The position numbers and the translations under genes are program-made. Below, piece after piece: positions 12,893-32,803 of a stretch of 64,000 nucleotides of DNA. How positions within the stretch are numbered: position 1 is the stretch's first letter; each line of letters begins with the position of its first letter. Origin of the DNA: an uncultured Gammaproteobacteria bacterium (GTDB taxonomy: Bacteria > Pseudomonadota > Gammaproteobacteria > Steroidobacterales > MnTg04). The stretch is from the NCBI GenBank assembly GCA_964568075.1, contig CAZMOM010000002.1, positions 32,398 to 96,397 on the forward strand. Reading direction: 5' to 3'. The notes beneath the pieces were generated by a model. That model saw only the letters and a list, made by a program, of their open reading frames with translations, was not told where the DNA came from and ran no database searches.

Positions 12893-12918
12893 TTCTTTTC
12901 CTCAATTATCGATAGCGG

Positions 12919-13503
12919 TCAGGCGGTTTCAGCCGGGGCTTCATCATCGGATGCCTCGGCGGCTGCCGGCTCGACGGCTTCCGGCTCGACCGCTGCCGGC
13001 TCGACGGCTGCCGGCTCGACAGCTGCCGGTTCGACGGCTGCCGGCTCGACGGCTGCCGGCTCGATGGGCTCGTCTTCCACCGATTCAGCAGCTTCGACGA
13101 TATTCTCTTTGGTCTCGGCATCCGGAATTTTGTCTTCCGCATCCGGCTTTTCCGATCGGTGCTCCGGTTTGGCTTTGCTTTCTTCTTCAGCAATTGCCAT
13201 GAATGACGGCTCGCTAATCGCGGCTTCGCGATTAATTACCATGTGACGCAAAACCGCATCACTGAATCGAAAAGCGCCAACCAGCTCTTCCAACGCCGAT
13301 CGGTCGCACTCGATATTGAGCATCAGGTAGTGAGCCTTGTGGATTTTGTTGATCGGGTAGGCGAGCTGCCGCCTGCCCCAGTCTTCCTGCCGATGAATGG
13401 AGCCTCCGCTGGTTTCGATCATGGACCGATAGCGGTCCAGCATCGCAGGAACTTGTTCGCTCTGGTCGGGGTGGACCAGAAACACGATTTCGTAGTGTCT
13501 CAT
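12919..13503 (-). CDS. rpsF: 30S ribosomal protein S6 with long repeat-containing acidic C-terminal extension
   Basis: The start [25 protein letters not shown] is canonical S6, normally about 130 aa. This protein is 194 aa, with a tail containing (EPAAV)n and D/E-rich sequence. Confidence 0.9.
12961..13065. repeat. 15-bp tandem repeat x7 inside the rpsF 3' region
   Basis: Seven consecutive units of consensus GGCTGCCGGCTCGAC occur with 0-2 mismatches each. They are in frame and encode VEPAA/EPAAV repeats on the minus strand. Confidence 0.9.
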
Positions 13504-13644
13504 TTAATCTCCTTACGGATTAAACAGCCTCCCGGTTTTCCGGTGAGGCAAGGAGCCAGCGCTTTTTCGCGCGTTGTGTTTCTGCGCATTTCACAGCGGG
13601 CGGAATGCTATACAAATTGCTGTTTTCGGGCAAGCTTTTCCTGT

Positions 13645-14382: not shown

Positions 14383-16613
14383 CGTTTTCGTTTTCGATTT
14401 CGCGCCCGTGACTTTCTCGGTGGCGGATCGCCTACCAGTTCAAAATCGATCTTTCTTTGGTCCATATCGACGCGGCTGACACGCACCTGCAAGTGATCCG
14501 ACAGCCTGAATTCCGCGCGCTTTTTTTCACCAGTCAGCGTGTGGTGGGTTGGGTCGTGCTCATAATAATCCACCGGCAGTGCGCTGATGTGTACCAGGCC
14601 CTCGATCTGTTTTTCGGGAATCTGCACGAAAAGACCAAAATTGGTCACTCCTGATATTACCGCCGAAAACACCTGGCCAATTTTGTCCTGCATATACTCG
14701 CACTTGAGGTACTCCATGGCCTGACGCGTCGCGTCGTCCGCGCGCTGCTCTGCCTGCGAGCAGATTTGCCCCAGACCGATCATCTCTTTTTTCGAATAAG
14801 CGAATCGCCCCGCTTGGCCGCCAGCCAGAGCGTGCTTGATCGCCCGGTGCACCAGAAGATCAGGAAATCGGCGTATCGGCGACGTGAAATGTGCATATTC
14901 TGCCAGCGCCAAGCCAAAGTGACCGGCGTTGTCAGGTTCGTAAATCGCCTTGGACAAGGAACGCAGCAGAACCGTCTCGATCAGATCGGAATCGTCACGC
15001 GTCGTTACTTTCTCCAGCAAACGGCTGTAATCCATGGGCTTTGGCTTTTTCCCGCCACCCAGTGACAATCCCTCTGCTGCCAGAAACAATCGCAGACCTT
15101 CCATCTTTTCCTGGTCGGGCCCGGCATGGGAACGATAAAGAAAAGGAAGGCGTTTTCGATGAATAAAGCGGGCCGCTTCGATGTTGGCGGCGATCATGCA
15201 CTCTTCGATGATCCGGTGCGCGGCGTTGCGTGGATAGGCGACCAGGTTTTTCAGCGTCTTGTCGTTCGCAAAAACCGCCTTGACTTCGGGTATGTCGAAT
15301 TCCAGTGCTCCGCGCCGGTGGCGCGCACGGGCCATAGCGCGATAGGCTTCGTGCAAGGCCGAAAGAGGCGTCAACAGGCGCTGGTGCTTCCGTCGGCTCG
15401 CAGCACTCTTGTGAATCAGTATATCGGCCACCTCGGTGTAGGTCAGTCTCGCCGTCGATTGCATTACGGCTTCAAAAAAATCGGATGACAGTACCTTGCC
15501 CTGCTTCGACAGCTTCATCTCACAGACGAGGCACAGGCGGTCCACCTTGGGCTTGAGGCTGCACAGTCCATTGGAGAGGATTTCCGGCAACATCGGAATT
15601 ACCTCGCGCGGAAAATAGACCGACGTTCCGCGCCGCTGTGCTTCCCGGTCCAGCGCGGTGCCTGGTTTTACGTAGTGCGCGACATCGGCGATCGCCACCA
15701 GGATGGTCCAGCCTTCCCGATTTCTCTCACAATAAACCGCATCATCAAAATCCCTGGCATCGGCTCCGTCAATGGTGAGCAAGGGGGTGTCGCGCAGGTC
15801 GTAGCGGTCATATTTAGCGGCCTCCGGAACCCGCTTGCCATAGCGACTGAGCTCCTTTTCCACCGCTTCAGGCCAGACATTCGGCAGCCCATGCGCGCTG
15901 ATGGCGATCAGCGTTTCCATGCCGGGGTCGTCGACTTCGCCCAGGATTTGCTTCACCTGGCCGACCGCCGCGCTGTGCGCTGTTGGTTGTCCGGTAATCT
16001 TCAGGACAACGACCTGGCCTGGCCGGGCGCCTTTGCGGAATCTTGGCGCTACCGAAATGTAGCGGCTGTACCGGTTGTTATCCGGTATGACAAAACCCTT
16101 GCCCCGTTCAAGGTGAAATCCACCGACCAGCTCCGTTGTTTTACGTTCGAGAACTTCGACGATGACGCCCTCCGGCCTCCCCCGCCTGTCTTCGCCCCGT
16201 ACCCTGACCGCCACACGATCCCCGTGCATGACCTGGCGCATCTCGCGGGCCGTCAGAAAGATGTCTCGCGTACCTTCATTGTCCGGGATCAGGAATCCGA
16301 AACCGTCCGGGTGGCCCTGGATTCTCCCCGTAGTTAGCGGCAAATGGCCGGTCAGGCAGTACAACCCTTTACGGTTTTTGATTACCTGCCCGTCCCGGGC
16401 CATCGCTTCCATGCGTCTGGTCAGCGCCGACCGGGCACGTTGCCCTTTCAGCCCCAGCTGCGCATTGAGCTCCGTCAGGCTCAGCGGTCTGCCGACTTTC
16501 TCGAGGGACTGATTGATTAATGCTCTGCTGGGTATCGGAAAGCGATGGAGATTGGCTTCCCGAGCTGCTTCCGGATTACGATCCTTCCATTGTTTTTTCT
16601 TGACCATCTGCAC
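14379..16613 (-). CDS. rnr: Ribonuclease R
   Basis: The 744-aa protein has an RNB catalytic region (TIDGADARDFDDAV, HFGLALAEYAHFTSPIRRFPDLLVHR). It also has an S1 domain and a basic K/R C-terminal tail. Confidence 0.95.
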   Translation of the reverse strand: MQMVKKKQWKDRNPEAAREANLHRFPIPSRALINQSLEKVGRPLSLTELNAQLGLKGQRARSALTRRMEAMARDGQVIKNRKGLYCLTGHLPLTTGRIQGHPDGFGFLIPDNEGTRDIFLTAREMRQVMHGDRVAVRVRGEDRRGRPEGVIVEVLERKTTELVGGFHLERGKGFVIPDNNRYSRYISVAPRFRKGARPGQVVVLKITGQPTAHSAAVGQVKQILGEVDDPGMETLIAISAHGLPNVWPEAVEKELSRYGKRVPEAAKYDRYDLRDTPLLTIDGADARDFDDAVYCERNREGWTILVAIADVAHYVKPGTALDREAQRRGTSVYFPREVIPMLPEILSNGLCSLKPKVDRLCLVCEMKLSKQGKVLSSDFFEAVMQSTARLTYTEVADILIHKSAASRRKHQRLLTPLSALHEAYRAMARARHRRGALEFDIPEVKAVFANDKTLKNLVAYPRNAAHRIIEECMIAANIEAARFIHRKRLPFLYRSHAGPDQEKMEGLRLFLAAEGLSLGGGKKPKPMDYSRLLEKVTTRDDSDLIETVLLRSLSKAIYEPDNAGHFGLALAEYAHFTSPIRRFPDLLVHRAIKHALAGGQAGRFAYSKKEMIGLGQICSQAEQRADDATRQAMEYLKCEYMQDKIGQVFSAVISGVTNFGLFVQIPEKQIEGLVHISALPVDYYEHDPTHHTLTGEKKRAEFRLSDHLQVRVSRVDMDQRKIDFELVGDPPPRKSRARNRKRKR

Positions 16614-16719: not shown

Positions 16720-16806
16720 GCCCAGGTGGCGGAATTGGTAGACGCGCGGCGTTCAGGTCGCCGTGTCCTTACGGATGTGCGAGTTCGAGTCTCGCCCTGG
16801 GCACCA
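16720..16806 (+). tRNA. tRNA-Leu (anticodon CAG), CCA encoded
   Basis: GCCCAGGTGGCGGAATTGGTAGACGCG CGGCG TTCAGGT CGCCG ...long variable arm... GAGTTCGAGTCTCGCCCTGGGCACCA. The cloverleaf was folded by hand and is close to E. coli tRNA-Leu(CAG). Confidence 0.93.
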
Positions 16807-16842: not shown

Positions 16843-17166
16843 AGAAAAAGAAGAAGACACTCCGTCCGCGCAGCGGACACCGACTTGTTACCACCATCCC
16901 CAACAAAACTGACGATATTGCAGCGGACATTGCCCCCTGTAGTCTGACGCAGGTGGCTTGACCTGCTCCCTCCCTTAGCTCAACCAGAAAAAGAAGAAGA
17001 CACTCCGTCCGCGCAGCGGACACCGACCTGTTACCACCATCCCCAACAAAATTGACGATATTGCAGCGGACATTGCCCCTTGTAGTCCGGCGCAGGTGGC
17101 TTGACCTGCTCCCTCCCTTAGCTCAACCAGAAAAAGAAGAAAGCAATTCGTCCGCGCAGCGGACAA
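16843..17166. repeat. 143-bp tandem repeat, about 2.25 copies, between tRNA-Leu and the 17172-17621 gene
   Basis: Copies start at 16843, 16986 and 17129. Copies 1 and 2 differ at about 5 positions. Each unit carries hairpins GTCCGC-gca-GCGGAC and GCAGGT-ggcttg-ACCTGC. A perfect 14-bp inverted repeat (16820-16833 / 16840-16853) joins the tRNA flank to the first unit. Confidence 0.85.
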
Positions 17167-20163: not shown

Positions 20164-21162
20164 TCAGGTTCGGTGATGCGGCAGTCCGACAAACGTGCCG
20201 CCGTTTTGCTCGCAAAGCAGGCGCATCAGTGTCGCGAATCGTATCGTGGTCGTCTGCAGGTGTGTTGGCAGCGTAAGAAGGGCCGGGAATCCGACCGCGT
20301 TGATCCGGACCAACCGCTTTCCATCGCGACCCTCCCGGTTAATCTGGCTTACTAAATTCAGAACCTGATCAATTGATCGGCCGGTAAATTCATCGCCAAA
20401 AACGTAGAGGCTGATTTTTTTGTCTGGCGAATAAAAAGTCTCTATGGCTTTGGTTATTCCTTCGACCGGACTGGAATTACTGAACGCGTTCCAGGTTTTG
20501 AGCCTGTCCATAATCGCTTTGCGCCGCCCGGGTGTATCGGGTATCCATTTTCCTGTGTAGCGGGTGAACATAAACTTACCCATATCGTTCATGACCTGGA
20601 TACCCTTGACCTTGGGATAAATTTCCAGCGTTTCCCGAAATTTCTCCAGCATCAGCGGCCAACTGTAGTTAATCATGCTCCCCGATGTATCGATGATGAA
20701 AATAATGTATTCGCTGTCGACGGGTATCCCGCCGATCAAATTGTCGTTTTCTGATTTCTGATAATCAGCCAGCAATCGCTTCATTTCGGACGTAAGCGAC
20801 TGGCGGGCGGCCGCCAGTTTTCCCTGGATGATATTGATCAACTCCGCGTCCTGACGGGAAGCGGCAAACTCGCCCTGAATTTTCGACATTTCCGCCTGCA
20901 GACGCGCCAGGCGTTGCCTGGCGACTGATAGCTGGTCTTCCCGGGAGATCATTTCCCGATTGAGAATACTGGTCTCGCCCCAGATCTCGTGCAAATCACG
21001 TTGCCGGTCCTCAAGCGCAGCCTGCAGATCGATGGCGGACTGCTCGATCACGACCGGCTCGAAAACCTTGGTCAGCACCAGCATCAGAATAACGGCGCCG
21101 AAACCACAGCAGATGACGTCAAGAAAGGACAGTGTGAGTCCTGTATCGCGCTTTCGCTTCAT
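20164..21162 (-). CDS. ExbD/TolR/MotB-like Asp-TM anchor, coiled coil and periplasmic vWA domain protein (paralogue 2)
   Basis: The N-terminus MKRKRDTGLTLSFLDVICCGFGAVILMLVL is a single TM with an embedded Asp (compare ExbD PFIDV, TolR PLLDV). A heptad-rich segment of about 100 aa follows. The vWA domain has MIDAS-like IIFIIDTSGSM and a later VFGDE. Confidence 0.7.
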   Translation of the reverse strand: MKRKRDTGLTLSFLDVICCGFGAVILMLVLTKVFEPVVIEQSAIDLQAALEDRQRDLHEIWGETSILNREMISREDQLSVARQRLARLQAEMSKIQGEFAASRQDAELINIIQGKLAAARQSLTSEMKRLLADYQKSENDNLIGGIPVDSEYIIFIIDTSGSMINYSWPLMLEKFRETLEIYPKVKGIQVMNDMGKFMFTRYTGKWIPDTPGRRKAIMDRLKTWNAFSNSSPVEGITKAIETFYSPDKKISLYVFGDEFTGRSIDQVLNLVSQINREGRDGKRLVRINAVGFPALLTLPTHLQTTTIRFATLMRLLCEQNGGTFVGLPHHRT

Positions 21163-21174
21163 GTCGCGCCTCCT

Positions 21175-22272
21175 CTACGGCCAGTCCCGGGAGGGGCTCA
21201 GAAAAGACCCCTTGGTGGCCATTGCCAGCTTCCAGTAATCGGACGATGCCGCCGGATCGCCTTCCATCGGAAACAGCACGATGTTGATGGGAATATTCAA
21301 AGGAAGATATCTCACCGCCCTGTCGAATAGTCTCTCTCTTTGTCGTCCTGTGACCGTTCCAGACGCCCTGATGTTCTCACCCTGGGTTGGTAAGCCATCG
21401 ACCAGCAAATAAACATTGTCCGGTTGGGGATGGAGCGATGTAATTACAGCAAACGCTGCGTGCAGGCTGGTGCCTTTCTCCGGGACCAGCCGCCGCAAAT
21501 TCTCGACCGCCCGGTTCAGGTCGCTGCCATCCCCCGCCTCCAGCCAGCGTCCAGCTGTGCCCTCCACCAACGGCGTTGCAGTCGTGTTAAACGCGTATAT
21601 CTGAAACTGGCTGGTTGGCGGAATCTGCGCGGTCAGCCAGTCAACCGTTTTAATCGCCCGTTGCCATTTCCTTGCCGCGAGCTTTTGCTCTGTCCGCATG
21701 TTCCGGCGTCGAATAACATTGACGATCGTTTCATCGAGCATGCTTGCCGACGCGTCAAGCAGAATCAATATGCGGTCGCCCCCCATCTGCATGCCCGTCA
21801 GATATTGCCTGTTTCCTTCGCCGATGAACGAACGCACGCTGTCTCCGCGCTGCTCGCCTTGTTCGACACCGCCTTCCAGTCTTCGGCGTTCCTCCTCGTT
21901 TGCCTGCAGGTCGGCTTTCAGTTTGTTGACGCTCTCTTTACTCGCCAACGTATCCTCATCCAGCCTCGCCAGTTCGACCCGGATTTTTTCCAGGTCCTGT
22001 GCGATCGAGTCGGCAAGACCATCGGTGACTGTTTCTTTCTCGTCCAGAATCGTGACGTTATTCCTGATTTGGACCAGGTATTCCTTACCTTCAAGAACCT
22101 GTTCTTCGAGCCGGGCAATTTCAGAAAGAAGATCGATGTTAGCTTCTTCTGTGCGCCGCTCTGTCGAATGATTGATAATCAGAAAAACAAGAATGACGGC
22201 GCCAAAACCACAGGACATACAATCCAGAAAAGACAAGTTAAAAACATTCATTTGTCGTTTTCTGAGAGCCAT
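21175..22272 (-). CDS. ExbD/TolR/MotB-like Asp-TM anchor, coiled coil and periplasmic vWA domain protein (paralogue 1)
   Basis: The TM segment NLSFLDCMSCGFGAVILVFLI is followed by a long coiled coil. The vWA domain carries ILILLDASASM, GTSLHAAF and YLLVDGLPTQG. ATG 22272 lies 1 nt after the upstream stop; an alternative TTG start is at 22284. Confidence 0.7.
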   Translation of the reverse strand: MALRKRQMNVFNLSFLDCMSCGFGAVILVFLIINHSTERRTEEANIDLLSEIARLEEQVLEGKEYLVQIRNNVTILDEKETVTDGLADSIAQDLEKIRVELARLDEDTLASKESVNKLKADLQANEEERRRLEGGVEQGEQRGDSVRSFIGEGNRQYLTGMQMGGDRILILLDASASMLDETIVNVIRRRNMRTEQKLAARKWQRAIKTVDWLTAQIPPTSQFQIYAFNTTATPLVEGTAGRWLEAGDGSDLNRAVENLRRLVPEKGTSLHAAFAVITSLHPQPDNVYLLVDGLPTQGENIRASGTVTGRQRERLFDRAVRYLPLNIPINIVLFPMEGDPAASSDYWKLAMATKGSFLSPSRDWP

Positions 22273-22273
22273 G

Positions 22274-23617
22274 TTAATCGCCAATACTGATCAGCTGAAC
22301 GGTCTCGCCCGGCGATCCCATGCGTATGACGTCGCCCAGCGCCAGTTCGGCGAACTCAGTGATCTTTCGCCCGTTGACGAACGTTCCATAACTCGAATGG
22401 TCTTCCACTGTCGTTCTTCCTTTCGCGCTTTTTACAGTACAGTGTTTCCGCGAAACGCCATCCAGCACACCGACCAGCTTTACGCCGCGCTCATTTTCGG
22501 GGGGGTCGATACCCAAAACCAGTGGGCCGTCGCTCAGAGAGTAGGCCCTGGCGCGGTAAAGCAAATGACTGGGCTTCGTATTCGACGACATCGCGATCCT
22601 GGCCGGGGACGATCCGCCGGACAACGGCAAACTGCTTAAAAAACCGACTTCGCCATTGCCCGGGCCGCTATTGCAAAGCCCTGGACGCGCAAGCACGCCG
22701 CGTGCCGCCGCGTTTTCATCCAGCCACCGCGATTCCAGCCCGTCTATCAAGCCCAGACTTTCTTTCAGGCCCGGAAATCCTGCCATTCGATGGCTAATCG
22801 CCATCAATCGGCCTTGCCGCGGTCGGACCTGCTGAACGATCTGCGGGTAAACAGCCGAACTTGCCGATAACAGATGATCGACGCCCAATTGCACCGTGTA
22901 GGTCTTGTCGTCTGCTTCAAGATCAATCGACGTGTTGCCACCGGATTCGACATCCGCCAGCCAGCTATCGAGCTTGTTAAACAGCTGTTGCTCCGTTGCC
23001 GCTTTGTGCAAGGGATCGAAGCGTGTCTGGCGGACGAATATATCTGCAACAATATTGGCCCAGTTTTCACGCAGCGCAGACAACCCCGTTTCACAGACGA
23101 CGAATACGCCGGCACGGGAAAGCTGGTCATCACTTTCCAACTCCGTCAATACGATTCGTTGTTGTTGAAGATCGAGATGCAGAGCGGGTAAATCAGGCTC
23201 GAGCGAAATGCCGGCTGCCACCGCCGCATCCACCATGCCCAGCACCGGGATATCCAGATCGGAAGCAATGCCCAGCATCAGCCCCATCTGTTCCTGATTC
23301 CAGGTTCCGGGTACCGCAACGATCAAGCCCGAATCGGGTTTGGCCAGTTGTTGCCAGATGTGCTCAAGATGGGCGTGAGCCAGATCGGCATTGGTTCGAA
23401 ATCGACCGGATGGATTCGACAACGGCTCCTGATTGAGTCCGCTCCAGAAACTGGTGTTTGTCCACAAGGGCTTCAGCCGTGATCTGTCGAACGCTTCCTG
23501 GCCAAGAAAAATATGCGGGCCATCCAGCACGGCACAGGCAGGGCTGCTAACGACTGTACGCTGGCCATCGCTGACCACGAGATCAACATCATTTATTTCC
23601 AGGACGAGATCAGACAA
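22274..23617 (-). CDS. Hsp70/actin-fold-like protein fused to a C-terminal FHA domain
   Basis: The central AVPGTWNQEQMGLMLGIASDLDIPVLGMVDAAVAAGI mirrors the Hsp70 motif ([32 protein letters not shown]). The N-terminal phosphate-1 region looks degenerate (LVLEINDVDLVV). The C-terminus has canonical FHA motifs (GVSRKHC...SSYGTFVNGRKI...GDVIRMG). Confidence 0.65.
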   Translation of the reverse strand: MSDLVLEINDVDLVVSDGQRTVVSSPACAVLDGPHIFLGQEAFDRSRLKPLWTNTSFWSGLNQEPLSNPSGRFRTNADLAHAHLEHIWQQLAKPDSGLIVAVPGTWNQEQMGLMLGIASDLDIPVLGMVDAAVAAGISLEPDLPALHLDLQQQRIVLTELESDDQLSRAGVFVVCETGLSALRENWANIVADIFVRQTRFDPLHKAATEQQLFNKLDSWLADVESGGNTSIDLEADDKTYTVQLGVDHLLSASSAVYPQIVQQVRPRQGRLMAISHRMAGFPGLKESLGLIDGLESRWLDENAAARGVLARPGLCNSGPGNGEVGFLSSLPLSGGSSPARIAMSSNTKPSHLLYRARAYSLSDGPLVLGIDPPENERGVKLVGVLDGVSRKHCTVKSAKGRTTVEDHSSYGTFVNGRKITEFAELALGDVIRMGSPGETVQLISIGD

Positions 23618-23631: not shown

Positions 23632-24429
23632 TTAGCGGACCTGTAAATGTCGAATCAGTTGTTCATCGACATAAGTTTGGGAATCCAGAACTAGCCCCTC
23701 TTGCGCCTCCTGCAACTGGTGCAACAAAAACATTACGATGATGCTGATGATCAGTGCGACAAATGTCGAATTGAAAGCGATACCGAGTGCCTGCGTGACC
23801 CCGGTAATGTCTCCGGCGACCGCTTCATTGGCACGGCCCAGGGCCTGACCGATCCCCCTTACCGTGCCGATAAATCCCACAGACGGTATCGCCCACGCCA
23901 GATAGCGCACCATGGACAGTTCGGTATCCATGCGTTCCGATTCCGTATCGCAAACCGCCTTGACCGCTGTGGATACATCCTGGATGCTCTTCGTCGCACG
24001 AAACCGGTGCAGGGCCGTCAACAGGGCTCGCGGTAACAACCGCCTTTGTTGCTCAATATTCATCGCCTGCAAGGGTCTCGCGTATTCCCGCGTGTCCTCC
24101 GGCAGCACGCTGGTTCCTTCACGGACGGAAATCAGTTTTTCCAACAGGAAACTGCGTTCGCGGTTCGTTACGATCGCCTTGTAACCCATCAGCGCGAACG
24201 CCCAGAGCATCAGGATAAAACAGGTTTCCTGTTCAAAGTCCCTGATAATGACGTAAAGGGATCGCTGTGGAACATAGTTTTCATCCTGCTCGAGCAGGAC
24301 AGCTCGTTCCAGAATTACGGCTTCAGCTCTTGGCCGGACCATCGAAACATAGATCGCGTGAACGATAATGACCGCAAGTATCAGGGAAAAGACCTGATAC
24401 AAAAATTCAACTGGATAGCGTCGCTGCAT
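23632..24429 (-). CDS. MotA/TolQ/ExbB family proton channel protein
   Basis: The 265-aa protein has N-terminal TM helices and a cytoplasmic insert. Its C-terminal signature is YLAWAIPSVGFIGTVRGIGQAL...GVTQALGIAFNSTFVALIISIIVMFLLHQL, which matches the MotA_ExbB core pattern. Confidence 0.8.
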   Translation of the reverse strand: MQRRYPVEFLYQVFSLILAVIIVHAIYVSMVRPRAEAVILERAVLLEQDENYVPQRSLYVIIRDFEQETCFILMLWAFALMGYKAIVTNRERSFLLEKLISVREGTSVLPEDTREYARPLQAMNIEQQRRLLPRALLTALHRFRATKSIQDVSTAVKAVCDTESERMDTELSMVRYLAWAIPSVGFIGTVRGIGQALGRANEAVAGDITGVTQALGIAFNSTFVALIISIIVMFLLHQLQEAQEGLVLDSQTYVDEQLIRHLQVR

Positions 24430-24447: not shown

Positions 24448-24729
24448 TCAGATATCGACCGGGTATGAGATAGACAGGTCACTGGACACCTTTTCGCTGG
24501 GCACAAAACTGTCCAGATCATCGATGGTTTGCGGCCGTTCCTCGCGTGGTTCTACGACCTGGGCTGCAGCGGCCATATCGTCGGCAGCAACCGCTGGCGC
24601 CGGATCGGCTACTCCCTGCTGCTCAGCGGTCCGGTCGGCGTCTTCTTCCTGAGCAACGAGGGGCCCGGAAAACCAAAAACAAATGGACAAGAGTATTCCC
24701 TGCGCTATGTTTCCTGCGTGCCTGATCAC
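24448..24729 (-). CDS. Small secreted acidic protein (signal peptide)
   Basis: The 93-aa protein has the signal MIRHAGNIAQGILLSICFWFSGPLVAQ followed by an E/D/A/P-rich region. Its placement within the operon is tight (14- and 18-nt gaps). I recognised no domain. Confidence 0.5.
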   Translation of the reverse strand: MIRHAGNIAQGILLSICFWFSGPLVAQEEDADRTAEQQGVADPAPAVAADDMAAAAQVVEPREERPQTIDDLDSFVPSEKVSSDLSISYPVDI

Positions 24730-24743: not shown

Positions 24744-27245
24744 TTATTCAAGATACCGCGCCAGCCGAAAGCCCAGATCGTCACGCGGGTCCTTGGCGTA
24801 ATCGCGAAAACCGACCCTCAATTCGCTGACACCGCCGGATGTCCAGCTGGACCCGCGAACAACATAATACTCCCCACTGGCCGGGCCTAGCGGATCCGTA
24901 GTAAGTTTTCCGGCCCGCAGAGGGTCTGCCGAGTAATAGTCATGCACCCACTCCGCGACGTTGCCAGCCAAATCAAAAAACCCGGTATCGGTGGCGTCAA
25001 ATGAGCCCGTGGGGGAGGTGGCCGCATATTTATCGTCGTAGCCTTCGATAACCACTGACACCATCATGCGTGCCGAGTTATCTGCGAAATTTCCGGAGCC
25101 ACTGAGCGGAGGCAGATTTTCGCCCCATGGATAGCGATTTTTCACGCCCTGCCTCGTTTGTCGTTGCGCCATGGCCCATTCCGCCTCGGTCGGCAGTCGA
25201 TAACCGGTAGTCATCGGGCTGGCGCCGACCAGCAGGTCATTCTCCGCAACATAGGCTGGCGGCAATCCGTCTTTTTCACTTAACCAGTTACAATATCTCG
25301 CGGCATCCTGCCAACTGATCTGGACAACCGGATGAGTATTTTGGTTCAAACTCGTTTTCTTGACGGCGCCGGAATTATGCTCCCGGCTAAACTTGCGAAA
25401 CTCCGCATTACTGACTTCATGAGTCCCCAGATAAAAAGGCTTCTCCAGTACTACAGGATGCTCGATCTCATTCGAGCGTCGCCCCGGTTGGCGACGCGGC
25501 GTTCCCATATCGATGCGTCCACCTTTGATTAAATTCAGTTTCTGCCCGGCCGCAGTCTCGATCGTCTTCGGAATCGACTCCCAGCGAGCCTGTTCAAGCG
25601 TTTTCAGATGCGCCACAAGCTGTTGCTCAAAGCCGGGCCGCGGCGTTACCCGGGCATGAAACGGCGCAAATCCTGGTTTGGAAAACTCGATCAGATGTGG
25701 CTGCGCGGATAATTTGAGCTGAAGATTGGTTTCGCCGCGATTGACTCCGTCAACTTTCACCGTAGCACCGGCTGGTTCGCTTTTGACTGTGACGAGGCCG
25801 ACCAGCGCCTGCAGGTTAACCAACACGCTGGCGTCCTGATCGGAACGCACTCGCAGATTGCGCGTTGCATTTCGGTGGCCTGCCAATGAAAACGCCAATT
25901 GATATTCGCGGTCGGGCGCCAACGCGATGCTCAATGGTGTTCGGCCCCGGTACTGCCGGTTTACGGTCACGCTCGCCCCGGGCGGGTTACTGCGAACCGA
26001 TACTTTTCCGTCGGCCTTGAGCAGCGTCACGGGCAGAAGCTGATGATTTCCGGCAATGACATCGATATTTTCCTGCCAGGTCTTGAACCCTTTTCTGCTA
26101 ATTTTCAGCTGCCGGCTACCCTGTAGCAATTCAACCGTCAGCGGGGTACTGCCGATTTCCAGATCATCGACAAAAACCCGCGCAACGGACGGCACGGACG
26201 TGAGTTCATAATTTGCCCAGGCGGGCAACATCTCTATTGTCAGGCTCAGTTCGTGTCCTCCGCCTTCCACCTGGATTGTCTGTCGATGATCGAGATAACG
26301 ATCCGCGCGTAACAGCAACTCATGTTCGCCAGATTCAAGATCGATATCGGACAGGGGCGTTACGCCGAGATCCCTGTCGTCCACCCGAACCGAAGAAATA
26401 GCGACCGGCGTACTTTGAATGCGAAAGTAATCCGGTAGCCTGTTGAGCTGAAACAGTACCTCCTGATTGGCTGACCCATCGACCCGGAACGTTTCCCGGA
26501 GCGGATGATATCCCTGCTTTTGTGCCGAAACCCTGGCATCGCCCTGTAACAGCAGGTAACGGCCACCCAATTCAAAACTCAACCATGCGCCGTCAACGTC
26601 AAATTTATCCGGCATCGGTTCGATGACAACGCGCACGGCTGTAGCCGAAAACATAAATGCTGCCAATGCTGCAAGGATCAAAAACCCGGCCACAATCGCC
26701 ATGGGCAACGGACGAAAACGGTCTTTGCGATCGAGCCTTTGCGTGCTCCGCGAAAATGAGCCGGGAACAATTTTCTGCGCGGAGATTTCGGTCGCTGACG
26801 GTTTGGCAGTCACGCTGAGATCGCCTGGAGTATCTGGCGACGTCAGTACCCATGACTTGACGCCATCCGACTCCTCTTCGCCCGGTGGCAAAGTCGAATT
26901 GGTGTCACGGGCCTGAAGATAGAGAATGCCGCCACGCCCGTCGGAGGCGAAATTTAGAATCAGCGGCCCCGCTCGTACGCGGTCACCATTACTCAGCAGG
27001 ACGGAGTCATCGATTTTTCGGCCGTTGACGAAAACACCCGGCGACCCGGACTCGATCTTCAGGGTCACTTTGCCGGCGTCGACGACAAAACTCGCTACCG
27101 GCTGCTGAACGTTGGTTGGCAAACTGCTCACCGGCAAGATCTCGCCGGTTTTGTCCAGAACCAGATAAAGCTCCGACTGGCTCTGTTGCTTATCGCCCGC
27201 TGACCGGTTGGTGTCAGTATGATTGGTCAAATCTTTTCCTCGCAC
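24744..27245 (-). CDS. FHA-like, TM, PEGA repeats and FGE-sulfatase (SUMF1/EgtB/PvdO-type) domain protein
   Basis: The cytoplasmic N-terminus has an FHA-like core (GVFVNGRKIDDSVLLSNGDRVRAGPLIL). A TM (MAIVAGFLILAALAAFMF) follows, then about 5 PEGA-like repeats (for example ARVFVDDLEIGSTPLTVELLQGSRQLKISRKGF). The C-terminus has FGE-type motifs (HPVVQISWQDAARYCNWL, GYRLPTEAEWAMA, GNVAEWVHDYY, VVRGSSW). The start is GTG 27245 or the TTG overlapping the upstream TGA. Confidence 0.8.
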   Translation of the reverse strand: MRGKDLTNHTDTNRSAGDKQQSQSELYLVLDKTGEILPVSSLPTNVQQPVASFVVDAGKVTLKIESGSPGVFVNGRKIDDSVLLSNGDRVRAGPLILNFASDGRGGILYLQARDTNSTLPPGEEESDGVKSWVLTSPDTPGDLSVTAKPSATEISAQKIVPGSFSRSTQRLDRKDRFRPLPMAIVAGFLILAALAAFMFSATAVRVVIEPMPDKFDVDGAWLSFELGGRYLLLQGDARVSAQKQGYHPLRETFRVDGSANQEVLFQLNRLPDYFRIQSTPVAISSVRVDDRDLGVTPLSDIDLESGEHELLLRADRYLDHRQTIQVEGGGHELSLTIEMLPAWANYELTSVPSVARVFVDDLEIGSTPLTVELLQGSRQLKISRKGFKTWQENIDVIAGNHQLLPVTLLKADGKVSVRSNPPGASVTVNRQYRGRTPLSIALAPDREYQLAFSLAGHRNATRNLRVRSDQDASVLVNLQALVGLVTVKSEPAGATVKVDGVNRGETNLQLKLSAQPHLIEFSKPGFAPFHARVTPRPGFEQQLVAHLKTLEQARWESIPKTIETAAGQKLNLIKGGRIDMGTPRRQPGRRSNEIEHPVVLEKPFYLGTHEVSNAEFRKFSREHNSGAVKKTSLNQNTHPVVQISWQDAARYCNWLSEKDGLPPAYVAENDLLVGASPMTTGYRLPTEAEWAMAQRQTRQGVKNRYPWGENLPPLSGSGNFADNSARMMVSVVIEGYDDKYAATSPTGSFDATDTGFFDLAGNVAEWVHDYYSADPLRAGKLTTDPLGPASGEYYVVRGSSWTSGGVSELRVGFRDYAKDPRDDLGFRLARYLE

Positions 27246-29611
27246 CGTATCAATACGGGCTCAGGCGATTCGCCAGGCCTGATGACGATTTGCTTTCTGA
27301 CATCGCGATACCCGTCACGAGTACCGATCAGGGTATACCGGCCAGGCAAAAGCTCCAGCGAATGATTGTTAAATGAACCCAGCCTGCCGATCTGGTAAAC
27401 GAAAACTTCGGTCATCGTGTCAGAGACCAGATCTATTTTTACCGGTATTCGGGCGAGCTGGAGTTGCAATTGCAACTGAACCAGTTGGCTGCTCAGCCGC
27501 GGACCAGGATTCGGCAAAAGATGTACCTGCTCGAGAAAACCCAGCGCCGCCTGGTAAACACCGTCTTCAGCCAGGCGCTCTGGCTTTTCTGTGTATAAAA
27601 CGAACTCCTCGTCCACGCCGATCATTTTTTGCGCCAGCGTTACGCCCTCGCGGCCAAACACGAGGTTGGGATCAAGTTTCAGCGCCGACTGGTACGCCAG
27701 CAGTGCTCGCTCCCATCGTTCATTGGCCGCATGGCCGTCGGCCTGTATACGGTATCGGCTGATTTCATTCAGCTTCATGACCTCATCGACCTGGTGCAGA
27801 CCATCCTTGGCGTCGACCGAGCCGGGATTAAGTCTTAGCGCCACCTGAAACGATTTCTTTGCCTGCTCCAGCTTGTTTTGGGCCAGGTAGGAAAATCCGT
27901 CGGACATCGACCGACTGAAATTCTGCCTGGCCAGACTTTTCTCCAAATCGCCAAGTGCGTTTATTGCCGGCTGCCAGGCTGGATTCAGATTTAGCACCTT
28001 GCGATAGGCGTCGCGCGCGGCAGAAATCTGATCTTCGTGCAAAAGGGATTCCGCGTCTGTCATCAACTGAAGTACCTGGTCGAGATTCTGCGCCCGAGCC
28101 AACCCTTGCCGAGCCCTGTTACTGTTCGAATAGATTGCAACCGCCAATTCATACTGCTGTTGGGCGCCGGTCGAATTACCGTCCGCCAAAGCGCTATCTC
28201 CGGCATCCAGCGCCGCTTCGAACACCGGGTTCACACGGTCGGTCAGCGCGTCGCTTTTTTCCAGCGCCGAGACATAGCTGGCCAGCGCAGCCAAATAATT
28301 TCCTTCGCGAAATAATGAATCTCCCTCGCGGGCCTGCTCAACTGCCGCGATAAACTCCTCGGCGGCCCAGAGATTGACGGCTCGATCTTCCAGTGCAATT
28401 TGCCGCCTCAACAATTGCGCAACCAGGCGCTCCGCCTGCTCGCGATTGCGCGCCGCTTCGGCAGACTCATAAGGGGCCAGCCTGGTCGCCTCTTGCACAT
28501 CGGCCAAGTCAGCAGCGGTTGAATTTAAGCTTTCTGGCGGCAACCCGGATTCGGGAGATGCGGTCAGCGTCTGATCGGGTTTTCTTTTAGCGACCTGCTC
28601 CGGTAAATACAAAAAAACGGCAGCAGCCAACAACAACAGGACGGCCATGATCAACCCGGGTATCCACGGTCGCCTGTCCAATAGATCCTGATCGACCGTG
28701 CCAGAGAGATCAGCGCTCACCGGCGCCACTGCGTGACGACGGATTTGTGTGATTTTGTCTGGCTCACTGTTTCCGGCGGCCGGTTGTTCTCCCGGCGGCA
28801 GCGTGGCTGTGCTGCCAAGACCGGTGGCATCGGCAAGCGCATTGCGTACCGCAGCGACCGATGAGGGCCTTTCAGCCGGAATCTTGGCCAGCATGCTCAT
28901 GATCAACGTGGTAAGGCCCGCCGGAAGCGGGTAGTCCGTCTGCGGCGGAACGGGTACCTCGTTCCGTATCTTGTCGTGATCGATGCTGGGATGAAACGGC
29001 GGCTTGCCCGTGAGCAGCTCGTAGATCATGACCCCCAATGCGTAGATGTCGTCGGCGACTGCGGCAGGATCGCCGTCAAGTTGCTGCGGACTGATCGAAT
29101 AGGGCGAGCCGCCTCCTTCGATTCCAGCGGAATCCCCGCTGAGCCCGCCGATCCCGAAGTCGCTGAGTTTGACCGTTCCATCGAGCGCAATCAGCACATT
29201 TTTGAGTTTGAGATCGCGGTGAACCATGCCCGCCTTGTGGGCATATTCCACCGCTTCGAGGACCGGAAACAGCATCGGCAGCCAATCTTTGTAGTGACGG
29301 CCAGCCATGGCCTCGAGATCGTCGCCTTCCACATATTCCATTGAGAAAAAGTGGCTATCGTCACTGCTGAAGAAATCCAGGACGCGAGTGATATTTGGAT
29401 GTACGAGCTTGCGAATGAGACTGCATTCCTTGCGCAGCCTTTCGACCATGTCCGGGTTGGCGGCGAGGGCAGGCTTTAGAATCTTGACAGCGACCCGGCT
29501 CGAAAACTCCTTGTCCTCAGCAAGCCAGACGTCGCCCATCCCCCCATGCCCCAATGGAGCGATCAGTGAAAAACGGCCGGATAATATTTGTCCCTTGTGG
29601 TATTCCTGCAT
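27227..29611 (-). CDS. Serine/threonine protein kinase (Hanks), TM, periplasmic TPR repeats and C-terminal PEGA-like domain
   Basis: Kinase motifs are GHGGMGDVW, VAVKILK, HRDLKLKNVLI and LSDFGIG. The TM is PGLIMAVLLLLAAAVFLYL. At least 5 TPR-like repeats follow, and the C-terminus (LELLPGRYTLIGTRDGYRDVRKQIVIRPG) is PEGA-like. Confidence 0.85.
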   Translation of the reverse strand: MQEYHKGQILSGRFSLIAPLGHGGMGDVWLAEDKEFSSRVAVKILKPALAANPDMVERLRKECSLIRKLVHPNITRVLDFFSSDDSHFFSMEYVEGDDLEAMAGRHYKDWLPMLFPVLEAVEYAHKAGMVHRDLKLKNVLIALDGTVKLSDFGIGGLSGDSAGIEGGGSPYSISPQQLDGDPAAVADDIYALGVMIYELLTGKPPFHPSIDHDKIRNEVPVPPQTDYPLPAGLTTLIMSMLAKIPAERPSSVAAVRNALADATGLGSTATLPPGEQPAAGNSEPDKITQIRRHAVAPVSADLSGTVDQDLLDRRPWIPGLIMAVLLLLAAAVFLYLPEQVAKRKPDQTLTASPESGLPPESLNSTAADLADVQEATRLAPYESAEAARNREQAERLVAQLLRRQIALEDRAVNLWAAEEFIAAVEQAREGDSLFREGNYLAALASYVSALEKSDALTDRVNPVFEAALDAGDSALADGNSTGAQQQYELAVAIYSNSNRARQGLARAQNLDQVLQLMTDAESLLHEDQISAARDAYRKVLNLNPAWQPAINALGDLEKSLARQNFSRSMSDGFSYLAQNKLEQAKKSFQVALRLNPGSVDAKDGLHQVDEVMKLNEISRYRIQADGHAANERWERALLAYQSALKLDPNLVFGREGVTLAQKMIGVDEEFVLYTEKPERLAEDGVYQAALGFLEQVHLLPNPGPRLSSQLVQLQLQLQLARIPVKIDLVSDTMTEVFVYQIGRLGSFNNHSLELLPGRYTLIGTRDGYRDVRKQIVIRPGESPEPVLIRCEEKI

Positions 29612-29626: not shown

Positions 29627-30865
29627 TTATGGCCGGGCGCCATCCGGTTTCGGGACCCCACCCTGTTCGTCCACAATAAAACCGGTTTCCGCAGCGTAAA
29701 TTTCCCGCAGAATATCCCGCCACTCATCGAATTGCGCATCGACGGTACCGGTCAGCTCCACAGTCTGGCCCTCCACATCAACCACCAACGGTGCGACCTG
29801 GGCTTCCATGGATTCGCTCAACTCCTTGATCGCCTCGAAATGGAGCTTCGATTCTTTCGATTTATCCAGGCCGCTCTTAATTGCTGTTATGCCACCGATT
29901 ATGGCGCCGGTCGAGGCGAGCTGGCCTGCCTGGGTATGGGATTTCTGACTGGCTGCGATTCCGCCGATCACCATCAGCCCGCCCGCGAGCAACCGGTTTC
30001 TGGCGGATGCCTTAAGTTCTCTAAGCGCCTGCGCCTCTTCGAAGGTATATTTCCGCCACTCCGAATACGGCTGATCCATTTGCCGATACAGCCCCGCGTA
30101 ATACTCATCCAGCGTATCGACATACATATATTCACGTTGGCGGATACGCAACATCCTGCCGACCATCGGGTCGTCGGTCGATGGCAAACGTCGTACCCGG
30201 TATTTACCTCTTCGGTTTTCCAGGTAATCGCCAAATACTTCCGGTGACAGATCGCCGGCAAATCGCAATTCTGCAACCCGCCGCACGTTCGTCAACTGAT
30301 CTTCAGTCATTTTTTGACGTACCGCCAGCAAATCATTGGCGATGGCATGATATAAATCCTGGAACGGGTCGCCACGCGACGGAATATATTCCTTATAGGC
30401 GTACTTACTCGCCTTATCCTGATATCTTTTTTTCAGCCATTGCTGCCCCGTCGCATCAACTGCCTCAATTTCGAGTTTTAGTATCTCTCCATCTGACGAA
30501 ATAATTTCGCCAAATACGATCAAGTCCATGCCGGCCGTCACTTTTGGCAGAACACGAACAGCGCCCCAATTCCCGGTGTCCTCAAGAACGCGCTTCACCT
30601 GATACGCCATGTACCGGGCTTCGGCCTTGCGAACCTCAGGGAAAATGTTTCGACTGTCTTCCTCGGTCGCCTGCTCGTCCAGATTAGACTCCAGACCAGG
30701 ATCGAAGATCACGATACCGACATCCAGCACGGTCGAATCCTGTATCTCCGCTCCCGCCTTGATCAGTCGGGTTGGATTAGCCTTAATTATATTCTGCTGC
30801 ACACAACCGCTGACCAAAAGTACGATCAGTAACACGATCCCTGTGTAAAATTTTGTGTTCTGCAT
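29627..30865 (-). CDS. Lipoprotein with C-terminal glycine-zipper segments
   Basis: The signal plus lipobox is MQNTKFYTGIVLLIVLLVSGC. Gly-zipper-like segments LLAGGLMVIGGIAAS and GAIIGGITAIKSG occur near residue 300. The start overlaps the upstream stop (TAATG). Confidence 0.6.
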   Translation of the reverse strand: MQNTKFYTGIVLLIVLLVSGCVQQNIIKANPTRLIKAGAEIQDSTVLDVGIVIFDPGLESNLDEQATEEDSRNIFPEVRKAEARYMAYQVKRVLEDTGNWGAVRVLPKVTAGMDLIVFGEIISSDGEILKLEIEAVDATGQQWLKKRYQDKASKYAYKEYIPSRGDPFQDLYHAIANDLLAVRQKMTEDQLTNVRRVAELRFAGDLSPEVFGDYLENRRGKYRVRRLPSTDDPMVGRMLRIRQREYMYVDTLDEYYAGLYRQMDQPYSEWRKYTFEEAQALRELKASARNRLLAGGLMVIGGIAASQKSHTQAGQLASTGAIIGGITAIKSGLDKSKESKLHFEAIKELSESMEAQVAPLVVDVEGQTVELTGTVDAQFDEWRDILREIYAAETGFIVDEQGGVPKPDGARP

Positions 30866-32574
30866 TATTGTCCAGTCGCTTTCTTGTACGCCCGGTATTC
30901 GTCCCAGAGTTTATCTCTAAGAACCGGGTCAAGTTCGTTTTCCGCCGCCTCACGCAGCTGTCTCGCGACGATGTCATCATCGCTCCCATCAGGAATATCT
31001 TCCGGTGGCGGGCTGGGCTGGGCATTGCCGCCCTCTTTCCGGATCAATGAGGATTTATCCTGCCCGTTGCTCGCTTCACCCGCGGTTTGCCCCGCCTGCG
31101 CAATCAGGAGATCGTCTTCGCCCGCAATCGTGTCGCCATCGTCGGAACCGAATCCCCGGTCGTTTCCTTCGTCGCCAAACTCACCGCCACCGATAGCAAT
31201 TCCAATTTTTGAACCCCGACCGGCCAGTAACACACCGTCAAGAGTCGCCAGGGAACCGGACAATTGCGCATCCAGAACCACCACCCGGTCCGCTGACGTT
31301 CGCGCGCCGGGAATAACCAATATGACTCCGCTGCCACTAGAAGAACCGTCATCAAGGCCCGGCATTCCCGGCAGACCGAGTCCACCCGGCAGCATGATTC
31401 CACCCGGCAAGAGTATGCTTCCGGGAACGGTTGTGAGGTCACCGGCGAGAACCATCCTGACGCCTGCATTCTGTCCGTTTGCCTGGTCAGCGTCGGTGTC
31501 CACTGAGCGCATCCCCTCGTTTATTGCATTCATGACCTGCGCCAGACCTTGTAATGCGGCAAGCCTGACCTGCAATTCTTCTCCCGGTGAACCTTCACTC
31601 GACTCATCGGCGTCGGAACCCTGCTGCGGTTTCGAACCGCTTTCTAATTCTGCCGTTTCACCGCTTTGCGTTTTGGCTGCGCCGCTGGCCAAAGCCGCGC
31701 TGGCTTTTTCGACTTCCGCCGCAACCTCGACCAAAGCTTCGCCGACCGCTATCCTCAGTGCCTCCTGGTATTCCGGGCTGCCCATGTCCGGCAGGTCCCC
31801 TGCCCGATTGTCCGCATCAGCATCGGCTGATCGGACCGAATTCATTTGCGACTCTGCAACCGCGTCGATCAAGTCCTGAAGCGTCTGCCGCGCCCGCGCC
31901 ATGGCCTGGTCAGCGCTCTGCAGATCGGCCGCGGACGCAGCATCGGTCTGCTTTGCCGACTGGCCACCGGCGTTCCCGCTACTGCTGTCGGCTACCTGAG
32001 TCTCGTCGCTGGAGACAGAATCGCCCTGGGCACTCTCCGTCTTTTCCTGGTCATTCTGCTGGTCGGCGTCGGCGACCGCCTGGTCGGCTGCCTTCTGCTC
32101 GTCTTCGTCGTCTTCCTCCTCGTTCGAACTGGCCGCCGCCTCCGACTCGCTTAATTCCGGTTCTTGCTGCTCATCGGTAGCCTCGGCAACGGCTTCGGCC
32201 GCTTCATCCAGCGCCTCATTGGCAGCTTGTATCGCCTCGTCCGCAGCCTGCATGGCCTCGTCTCCGGACGCTGATTCAGATTCGTCGCTGCTGCTGTCGG
32301 CCGCGGCACTGCTCGCCGCTGCTGACGAGCTGCTTTGCTGACTGTATTCGGGACTGGAGGACGCGCTGCTCGATGAACTCTCCTGGCTTTGCGTCTGCAA
32401 CTCGGCCATGCTCTGACTCGCCGACGAAGTCTGCGTCTGGCTTTGACTTTGTGACTGCGACTGGCTTTGCGAAGACGATTCGGATTGCTGCTGCGGTGGC
32501 GTCACACAGCCGGCGATCAGGAAAACGCAAACAACCGGTATCCATCTGTGAATTCTGATATTTGTAGTCATCAT
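30865..32574 (-). CDS. Hyper-acidic, low-complexity (S/Q/E/D/A-rich) lipoprotein
   Basis: The likely start at 32574 gives MMTTNIRIHRWIPVVCVFLIAGC, which contains a lipobox. It is followed by SQSQSQSQSQSQTQT and long S/A/E/D tracts (EEDDEDEQ). The C-terminus is an ordered-looking helix, DDDIVARQLREAAENELDPVLRDKLWDEYRAYKK. Confidence 0.6.
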   Translation of the reverse strand: MMTTNIRIHRWIPVVCVFLIAGCVTPPQQQSESSSQSQSQSQSQSQTQTSSASQSMAELQTQSQESSSSSASSSPEYSQQSSSSAAASSAAADSSSDESESASGDEAMQAADEAIQAANEALDEAAEAVAEATDEQQEPELSESEAAASSNEEEDDEDEQKAADQAVADADQQNDQEKTESAQGDSVSSDETQVADSSSGNAGGQSAKQTDAASAADLQSADQAMARARQTLQDLIDAVAESQMNSVRSADADADNRAGDLPDMGSPEYQEALRIAVGEALVEVAAEVEKASAALASGAAKTQSGETAELESGSKPQQGSDADESSEGSPGEELQVRLAALQGLAQVMNAINEGMRSVDTDADQANGQNAGVRMVLAGDLTTVPGSILLPGGIMLPGGLGLPGMPGLDDGSSSGSGVILVIPGARTSADRVVVLDAQLSGSLATLDGVLLAGRGSKIGIAIGGGEFGDEGNDRGFGSDDGDTIAGEDDLLIAQAGQTAGEASNGQDKSSLIRKEGGNAQPSPPPEDIPDGSDDDIVARQLREAAENELDPVLRDKLWDEYRAYKKATGQ

Positions 32575-32803
32575 GAAACCTGCCTTTGGCTTTTTTTGGT
32601 GAGCCAGATCGAGCGAACCTACCGCAATTAATCGCGGTCCAAGGATACTCGCCCGCTCCTCGTGGTCACAACCATTCATTCGTGGCTGTTTTGGGGCACT
32701 CCCTTGATTAGACTGGCAATCCGGTTAAAGTTCTGCTATCCGGGGCGGAACTATTATCGCTCCTACCGCTCGTAACTGAACAGATACTGGAAGAAACGTA
32801 TTG

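Follow-up and report, generated by a model that had tools for sequence, protein, structure and literature searches.

A pair of vWA-headed candidate B-type motor subunits and their MotA-like partner in a conserved nine-gene operon

The window analysed here is a stretch of 64,000 nucleotides from an uncultured Gammaproteobacteria bacterium of the MnTg04 lineage of Steroidobacterales (GenBank assembly GCA_964568075.1, contig CAZMOM010000002.1, positions 32,398 to 96,397), and all coordinates given below for its genes count from its first letter. On the minus strand of this window lie two neighbouring genes, which we call B1 and B2, and a little upstream of them a gene for a channel subunit of the MotA/TolQ/ExbB family. 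B1 (20164..21162) encodes a bitopic protein of 332 residues with a basic tail, a transmembrane (TM) helix, a helical stalk and a vWA head, and its ATG start is found seven bases downstream of an AGGAGG ribosome-binding site. The TM helix spans residues 11-31 (21070..21132; hydropathy 2.43) and carries the motif SFLDVICCGFGA, in which Asp15 is encoded at 21118-21120. It is followed by a predicted helical, coiled-coil-like stalk at residues ~32-140 (20743..21069) and by the vWA domain at residues ~150-330 (20173..20715), whose metal ion-dependent adhesion site (MIDAS) comprises D158-x-S160-x-S162 (20677-20691), S228/S230 and D257.

B2 (21175..22284) is organized in the same way: a TM helix that contains Asp21 (codon 22222-22224) is followed by a stalk and then by a vWA domain, in which the canonical MIDAS residues are D177-x-S179-x-S181 (21742-21756), T272 and D296. 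Read from a TTG codon the protein has 369 residues. Because the B2 orthologues begin at an internal ATG at 22272, directly past the stop of the upstream gene, the true product is probably 365 residues long and starts at this codon. The translations contain the helices LTLSFLDVICCGFGAVIL in B1 and FNLSFLDCMSCGFGAVIL in B2, and the sequences DTSGS (B1 158-162) and DASAS (B2 177-181). A BLASTP comparison of the two proteins gave E = 6e-11, with 26% identity across the N-terminal 180 residues.

The AlphaFold2 model of B1, built from 43 sequences, has a mean predicted local distance difference test score (pLDDT) of 76 and shows a long helix at residues 11-100 that includes the TM segment, a second helix at 106-138 and an alpha/beta domain at 150-330 with a pLDDT of ~90. 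When this model was searched with Foldseek, the top matches were exclusively vWA domains, with probability 1.00 to many vWA structures; the best was 4fx5 (E = 2e-6), followed by CMG2/ANTXR2, ITIH1, calcium-channel alpha2delta and integrin I domains. In the model, the MIDAS residues of B1 sit in the beta1-alpha1 loop, in the loop preceding helix 232-243 and after beta4, which is where a MIDAS forms in this fold. At the level of profiles, B1 as a whole protein has no match in Pfam or NCBIfam, B2 reaches 24.6 bits (E = 4e-5) with Pfam VWA_2, just under the cut-off of 27, and 28 of 34 diverse members of the B1 family match the same model at E <= 0.1. A family profile over the B1 stalk matched only coiled-coil proteins in the PDB, and searches of PDB chains with the B1 and B2 sequences returned noise or coiled-coil matches only. 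Pfam detected no OmpA-like or ExbD domain in either protein. These results bear out the architecture given in the original prediction, which had described two paralogous proteins with a basic tail and a single TM helix with an embedded Asp (here seen in the translations and in hydropathy), about 100 residues of heptad-rich sequence and a vWA domain with a DxSxS motif, lacking an OmpA-like or ExbD-type domain.

The channel gene (23632..24429) encodes a protein of 265 residues that scores 53.1 bits with Pfam MotA_ExbB (PF01618), for which the cut-off is 22.9. With the NCBIfam TolQ equivalog it scores 24 bits where 221 are required, and it is therefore not a TolQ orthologue. When it was aligned to TolQ (8odt) and MotA (8gqy), the segment GFIGT189VRGI matched the part of TolQ that contains T145, and N220-S221-T222 matched the part that contains T178, which places the pore threonines at T189 and T222. 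Among orthologues of this MotA-like protein T189 is conserved in at least 97%, and N220, S221 and T222 are invariant in 68/68. Its basic N-terminus, a second hydrophobic segment at residues 69-87 and a PDB match slightly better to MotA than to TolQ hint at a MotA-like four-helix topology.

The B2-B1 pair closes an operon of nine genes on the minus strand, which is conserved across phyla and has short or overlapping junctions; the original prediction had not noted this larger system. In the order of transcription the operon encodes an acidic lipoprotein, a lipoprotein of 412 residues, a Ser/Thr protein kinase, a protein with FHA, PEGA and formylglycine-generating enzyme (FGE)-sulfatase domains, a secreted protein of 93 residues, the MotA-like protein, a protein of 447 residues, B2 and B1. 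Unless stated otherwise, we counted conservation over the 80 best loci around B1 and B2 (L001-L080); the MotA-like gene was scored in the loci with >3.7 kb of sequence upstream of B1 (n=65) and full operon content in those with >9.3 kb (n=58). The B2-B1 tandem is present in 80/80 loci, and gene content and order are identical to those of the window in 57-58 of the 58 loci with enough upstream sequence. The original prediction had paired the TM-stalk-vWA architecture with a MotA_ExbB gene, and such a gene accompanies it at all 65 loci with enough flank. Searches with phmmer using E. coli TolR, ExbD and MotB gave 0 matches among open reading frames of at least 50 residues in the 80 loci; the TolQ query recovered the MotA-like genes.

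We found the motif [SA]F[LM]D-x3-C-[GA]-F-G-A in 80/80 B1 orthologues and in all B2 orthologues with a covered N-terminus (71/71). F13, L14, D15, C19, G20, G22 and A23 are invariant in 81/81 B1 sequences, the equivalent residues of B2 are likewise invariant in 72/72, and D15 and C19 stay invariant in a 34-sequence family alignment that reaches 31% identity. Among the N-terminally complete members of 150 listed representatives there is a single D-to-S exception, P0128, which has FLS for FLD. The aspartate on which the original prediction depended is thus kept in the orthologues of both proteins. The MIDAS is equally constant: D158, S160, S162, S228, S230 and D257 of B1 are invariant in 81/81 sequences, and D177, S179, S181, T272 and D296 of B2 in 72/72. 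The TM helices, SFLDVICCGFGAVIL in B1 and SFLDCMSCGFGAVIL in B2, contain no His and no SHLS motif.

The family is large. A word-indexed homology search gave >8000 proteins related to B1, an exhaustive HMMER search gave 1191 clusters at 50% identity with E <= 1e-3, 315 of them with E <= 1e-30, and when one genome was scanned for each species, at least 565 species had a confirmed relative. Complete clusters occur in Halieaceae, Pseudoalteromonas, other Gammaproteobacteria, Acidobacteriota and Desulfobacterales. Given 1191 clusters at 50% identity and the invariant motif residues, the B1/B2 architecture is far from a chance feature.

Charge distribution gives an indication of topology. The 15 residues before the TM helix contain on average 3.9 Lys and Arg in B1 and 3.4 in B2, and those after the helix 0.5 and 1.6, a pattern that by the positive-inside rule reads as N-terminus in, C-terminus out. 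There are also several close vWA-only homologues (48-60% identity) in which a Sec signal peptide or a lipobox replaces the TM helix and stalk (P0172, P0176, P0200 with LVTGC, and P0236). Because of the Lys/Arg bias and these signal-peptide-bearing relatives, the vWA head is most likely periplasmic, and the indicators agree with the original prediction in placing it outside the cytoplasm.

A family that fits this description has been reported recently. A study in Mol Biol Evol 2025 (msaf138; PMC12204202, section 8, Fig. 4c-d) described paired "TPH-vWA" proteins encoded beside tolQ-like genes, with which they co-occur tightly, with no tolR/exbD genes and no SHLS motif. According to that study (PMC12204202), the trans-pore helix (TPH) is TolR/ExbD-like with a conserved Asp, the pairs are mostly heterologous, and an AlphaFold 3 model of 5:2 stoichiometry places the helices within the pentamer of the tolQ-like protein, where the Asp pair faces a threonine ring. 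B1 and B2 share with TPH-vWA the N-terminal TM helix with Asp, the C-terminal vWA domain, the lack of SHLS, the heterologous pairing, the tolQ-like gene with a Thr ring, the absence of tolR/exbD/motB and a mainly Proteobacterial distribution. It is very likely that the two families are the same at the sequence level, a match made by description: the reference species of the paper is Idiomarina loihiensis, for which neither the paper nor its supplements give an accession or sequence (PMC12204202), and the 120 best homologues retrieved with the Pseudoalteromonas orthologue include no Idiomarina protein. The original prediction had presented a vWA-headed stator as a novel output module; since the same computational hypothesis was already in print (PMC12204202), the novelty of the basic idea falls. 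The lipoproteins, the TPR protein, the PEGA/FGE-sulfatase protein, the FPxDI peptide, the layer of kinase, FHA and Hsp70-like proteins and the occurrence in Acidobacteriota and Desulfobacterales, all described below, are unreported in that paper. Other sources that we consulted, namely a 2020 eLife survey of vWA conflict systems (PMC7159879), an mBio 2025 phylogeny of MotAB and a 2026 review of Ton/Tol systems, describe no MotA-linked system in the first case and make no mention of vWA partners in the other two.

Taken together, these observations make it probable that B1 and B2 are vWA-headed B-type subunits seated in the pore of the MotA-like pentamer, within a conserved nine-gene operon that includes a phospho-signalling layer. 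Both proteins would be inserted in the inner membrane, with a cytoplasmic N-terminus and a periplasmic C-terminus. Their helices, with the Asp three residues in and a small-residue face (C-G-F-G-A), would occupy the central pore of the pentamer, the position taken by ExbD, TolR or MotB in 5:2 proton motors, and a dimer, perhaps a B1/B2 heterodimer, would fill it. Protonation and deprotonation of D15 and D21 against the ring of T189 and T222 would then drive rotation of the A pentamer relative to the B dimer. The stalk of ~100 residues, up to ~15 nm if extended, would hold two MIDAS heads in the periplasm, so that the mechanical output may be a metal-dependent binding head.

Comparison with the established B subunits supports this reading in part. 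The helix starts of E. coli TolR (NIVPLLDVLLVLLLIF), E. coli ExbD (NVTPFIDVMLVLLIIF) and B1 (LTLSFLDVICCGFGAV) share one layout, also seen in B2, of a basic tail, a hydrophobic run and an Asp three residues in. The best local alignment, which hhalign made with a profile of 16 B1/B2 N-termini, sets D15 opposite TolR D23 and ExbD D25, at probabilities of 1.4% and 0.3%, respectively. Because this alignment of the Asp lacks significance, we do not claim homology, and the likeness of the B1/B2 helix to ExbD/TolR is, as far as sequence goes, a motif resemblance only. The original prediction had likened this helix to the proton-relay helix of ExbD, TolR and MotB; the register of the Asp and the general layout stand, and significant homology does not. 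The proposal that B1 and B2 work like B subunits draws on position, conservation and context.

Several observations weigh against the pore-subunit reading. No significant homology at the sequence level links the helix to ExbD, TolR or MotB: Pfam ExbD (PF02472) and MotB_plug (PF13677) find nothing in the 50-residue N-terminal segments even at E <= 10. The original prediction had also pointed to one MotA-like gene with two B-like genes; the MotA-like gene is present throughout and adjoins B2 directly in distant clusters that lack the kinase, but it is not adjacent to the pair in the window, where the gene for the 447-residue Hsp70-like/FHA protein separates it from B2. The neighbourhood is not always free of a canonical B subunit, as one of the distant loci, L089, has a separate, conventional MotA_ExbB-ExbD pair ~3.7 kb upstream of its B2 gene. 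A 5:2 motor needs a fixed point, and the MIDAS head offers no evident one. The published AlphaFold 3 model was made with Idiomarina proteins, which correspond to B1 and B2 by description only, and we found no experimental work on any member of the family in the literature.

An alternative is that B1 and B2 are membrane-anchored vWA adaptors that act with the MotA-like channel but outside its pore, similar to TonB/TolA or BatA/BatB, with an Asp that serves in packing or in metal or ion binding and with some other protein as the pore subunit. The lack of significant homology of the helix to ExbD, TolR and MotB would fit such a role, as would the separate vWA family that has been proposed to bind at the edge of a motor (PMC12204202). 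The pore subunit could then be the 93-residue product encoded just upstream of the MotA-like gene, a small protein with a hydrophobic stretch near its N-terminus, but this stretch has no conserved acidic residue and in most loci looks like a cleavable signal peptide. B1 and B2 also lack the SHLS/His motif of TonB/TolA-type partners. Both paralogues keep the Asp, its position and the small-residue face unchanged across phyla; as this conservation exceeds what anchoring needs, simple anchoring is disfavoured, and we regard the adaptor role as rather unlikely.

The pore-subunit reading can also be set against the known motors. In common with ExbB-ExbD and TolQ-TolR, which form 5:2 motors, the system has an A subunit of the MotA_ExbB family with both pore threonines and B-type proteins in which a short basic tail in the cytoplasm precedes a single TM helix that has the Asp in register (PFIDV, PLLDV, SFLDV). 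It differs from them in that the stalk and vWA domain of B1/B2 replace the ExbD fold, there are two B genes, the A subunit has the extra hydrophobic segment at 69-87 and a basic N-terminus, and a TonB/TolA-type partner is not evident. The combination of a single A-type gene with two different B-type genes is shared with Myxococcus AglR-AglQ/AglS, where AglQ and AglS are small TolR-like proteins that are not known to carry a vWA domain. In Myxococcus the vWA adhesin, CglB, is a protein of its own, a lipoprotein of the outer membrane (PMC9946355).

The other genes of the operon, all on the minus strand, encode mostly envelope proteins. The first gene (30865..32679) specifies an acidic lipoprotein of 604 residues (lipobox LIAGC) that is of low complexity, rich in Ser, Glu, Asp and Ala, almost throughout; its stop codon and the start of the following gene overlap. 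It ends in a conserved motif of ~45 residues (…DDIVARQLREAAENELDPVLRDKLWDEYRAYKK), 70-80% identical, which we found just upstream of the 412-residue gene in 54/80 loci. The lipoprotein of 412 residues (29627..30865; lipobox LVSGC) is present in 57/58 loci and has no Pfam or NCBIfam match. It is followed by the Ser/Thr protein kinase (27227..29611), whose 794 residues comprise a cytoplasmic kinase domain (Pfam Pkinase, 6e-41), a TM helix at 316-334, a periplasmic TPR region that is also recognized by Pfam and a PEGA-like C-terminus.

The next gene (24744..27245; 58/58 loci) encodes a protein of 833 residues with a cytoplasmic FHA domain, a TM helix at 180-198, four periplasmic PEGA domains and a domain of the FGE-sulfatase fold (Pfam PEGA 9e-49, FGE-sulfatase 2e-43, FHA 9e-4). 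Direct reading of the C-terminal segment of the FGE-sulfatase domain (…RGSSWTSGGVSELRVGFRD…) shows no cysteines. This segment corresponds to the one in which we take the catalytic pair of human FGE, Cys336/Cys341, to lie; on that assumption catalytic FGE activity is disfavoured, and the domain is probably a binding module, by analogy with GldK/PorK, and not an enzyme. GldKLMN/PorKLMN of the type IX secretion and gliding apparatus also combine a 5:2 motor with a long periplasmic arm, GldM/PorM, that reaches toward the outer-membrane-associated FGE-sulfatase-fold protein GldK/PorK, and the gldK-gldL-gldM order is paralleled here by FGE-fold protein, A subunit and B subunits. The parallel is one of analogy: the FGE protein is no lipoprotein and is instead anchored in the inner membrane via its TM helix and PEGA repeats, it scores 93.2 bits with the GldK/PorK model (TIGR03525) against a cut-off of 350, and GldM is unrelated to B1/B2.

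Between this gene and the MotA-like gene lies that of the small secreted protein (24448..24729), 93 residues with a signal peptide, a variable acidic middle and a conserved C-terminus ending in SSDLSISYPVDI-COOH. A small open reading frame occupies this place in 62/64 loci, and a terminal P-x-D-I is found in 61/64, across phyla; the C-terminal consensus SE(E/Q)IS(E/A)DLSVSFP(V/T)DI-COOH is the only conserved part of the protein. We considered this product as a pore subunit and rejected it on the grounds given above, namely a mostly signal-peptide-like hydrophobic segment with no conserved acidic residue.

The gene between the MotA-like gene and B2 (22274..23617) encodes a cytoplasmic protein of 447 residues with an Hsp70-like nucleotide-binding domain (NBD) fold (1 to ~315) and a C-terminal FHA domain (~360-445; Pfam FHA E = 3e-11). 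A profile of its family matches the NBDs of SSB1 and DnaK, and its AlphaFold2 model (pLDDT 88.9) matches Ssb/DnaK in Foldseek at 1e-16 to 1e-14. At the two phosphate-binding loops the family consensus reads ELNDxxL and LHLDLQ. Because these sequences replace the Gly/Thr-rich loops of Hsp70, the protein is probably not an ATPase and may be a pseudo-ATPase. The gene is present in 58/58 full loci of the clade to which the window belongs. Downstream of the operon, the glycosyltransferase gene and the flanks are not conserved. Elsewhere in the window, a tRNA-Leu(CAG) gene (16720-16806, plus strand) is followed by a tandem repeat with a unit of 143 nt (16843-17165), made of two full copies with 97% identity and the start of a third.

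A simpler version of the cluster exists in more distant genomes. Four clusters with B1 at ~32% identity lack the kinase (L081 2231-10954, L083 4225-10990, L088 510-8948 and L089 3274-11937). They encode a low-complexity protein and an orthologue of the 412-residue lipoprotein (E = 1.5e-57), with MotA, B2 and B1 downstream; a TM-TPR-PEGA-like protein homologous solely to the periplasmic part of the kinase (E = 5e-13); a TM-PEGA-FGE-sulfatase protein that has no FHA domain; and a small protein of 39-53 residues ending in PSDI or PTDI. The Hsp70-like gene is absent from them, and the L089 cluster is split into two convergent operons. Directly after the L088 cluster (9653-15121), in a single case, lie genes for an HNH protein, two DNA methyltransferases, an AAA protein and a NotI-like protein, a group that reads as a restriction-modification or defence island. 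Because the distant clusters lack the kinase, the FHA domains and the Hsp70-like gene, gene content points to a core that is an envelope apparatus, to which the clade of the window added a cytoplasmic phospho-signalling layer consisting of a kinase domain on the TPR protein, an FHA domain on the FGE protein and the inserted Hsp70-like/FHA gene. This layer probably gates assembly or activity of the apparatus. Neither the arrangement of nine genes nor the FPxDI peptide nor the phospho layer added to the core appears to have been described before.

For the B-type subunits proposed above, the neighbouring genes suggest possible partners. The MIDAS heads may bind an acidic ligand, for which the Asp-Ile-COOH end of the secreted peptide and the acidic lipoprotein are speculative candidates. 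The remainder of a trans-envelope assembly would consist of the lipoproteins, the TPR protein and the PEGA/FGE-sulfatase protein. Its physiological output might be adhesion, envelope remodelling, movement on surfaces or defence. Autophosphorylation of the kinase, read by the two FHA domains, would control assembly or gating, and the Hsp70-like domain might dock on the cytoplasmic face of the motor. A bolder version, which we put forward tentatively and consider somewhat doubtful as a whole, is that MotA, B1 and B2 could be the engine of a horizontally spread, nine-component, envelope-spanning machine in which a rotating coiled-coil stalk holds out two different MIDAS heads. These would catch an acidic ligand that the operon itself supplies, most plausibly the FPxDI end of the secreted peptide or the acidic lipoprotein. 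In such a machine, ligand capture, together with the PEGA/FGE-sulfatase and TPR proteins, would couple proton flow to pulling or remodelling at the peptidoglycan or the outer membrane, and in one clade Ser/Thr phosphorylation, the two FHA domains and a pseudo-Hsp70 clamp on the cytoplasmic side of the motor would act as a switch.

A different proposal about the role of the cluster, compatible with the B-subunit mechanism, is that it constitutes a Zorya-like conflict or anti-phage system in which the motor senses perturbation of the envelope, the vWA and FGE (C-type-lectin-fold) domains bind invader molecules, and the kinase and FHA proteins are the output. The distribution of the cluster is patchy across phyla, yet B1 is ~60% identical among Gammaproteobacteria, Acidobacteriota and Desulfobacterales, which together suggest horizontal spread; the flanking genes are not conserved, and the L088 cluster abuts restriction-modification/AAA genes. 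Domains of the vWA, FGE-sulfatase, FHA, kinase and Hsp70 types recur in predicted conflict systems (PMC7159879), although that survey has no MotA-linked version. Like Zorya ZorA-ZorB, the system would be a non-flagellar MotAB-type motor within an accessory gene cluster, and PADLOC returned a marginal ZorA match over the channel region (E = 0.0012). The tail of ZorA, the peptidoglycan-binding domain of ZorB and the ZorC/D effectors are, however, missing here; PADLOC gave no ZorB, ZorC or ZorD match and no defence-system assignment for the operon proteins, and its matches to the kinase are generic. Moreover, the operon encodes no nuclease, protease, NTPase or other effector, and its gene order and content are very stable and its proteins strongly conserved, unlike fast-evolving defence loci. 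We therefore hold a conflict role to be improbable. The inverse topology, in which cytoplasmic vWA domains would assist the Hsp70-like/FHA protein much as co-chaperones do, on the pattern of vWA-MoxR pairs, and MotA would be mechanistically unrelated to them, is highly improbable: the Hsp70-like gene does sit between MotA and B2, and cytoplasmic vWA co-chaperones are known in MoxR systems (PMC7159879), but both paralogues have a strong positive-inside bias, vWA homologues carry Sec or lipoprotein signal peptides, the kinase-less clusters retain MotA-B2-B1 without an Hsp70-like gene, and the ATP-binding motifs of the Hsp70-like protein are degenerate.

B1 and B2 thus very likely belong to a recently proposed class; the feature is real and strongly conserved, and we infer its B-subunit status. 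Ion-driven 5:2 motors (MotAB, ExbBD, TolQR, GldLM and ZorAB) form a limited group of machines by which energy passes from the inner membrane to the rest of the envelope. Each new output module means another use of rotation, and here the B subunit would end in a stalked, metal-dependent adhesion domain. As the basic idea is already in print, the present analysis is of value for the extended system that it describes and for the access to experiment that it offers, and not for priority. Members of the family are found in marine bacteria that are in culture, such as Pseudoalteromonas denitrificans, Parahaliea, Congregibacter, Thalassotalea and Microbulbifer, which makes genetics feasible. The operon peptide with its acidic C-terminus is a concrete candidate for the MIDAS ligand, and the kinase-less and kinase-bearing versions of the cluster may serve as a natural experiment in how a phospho-switch is grafted onto a motor.

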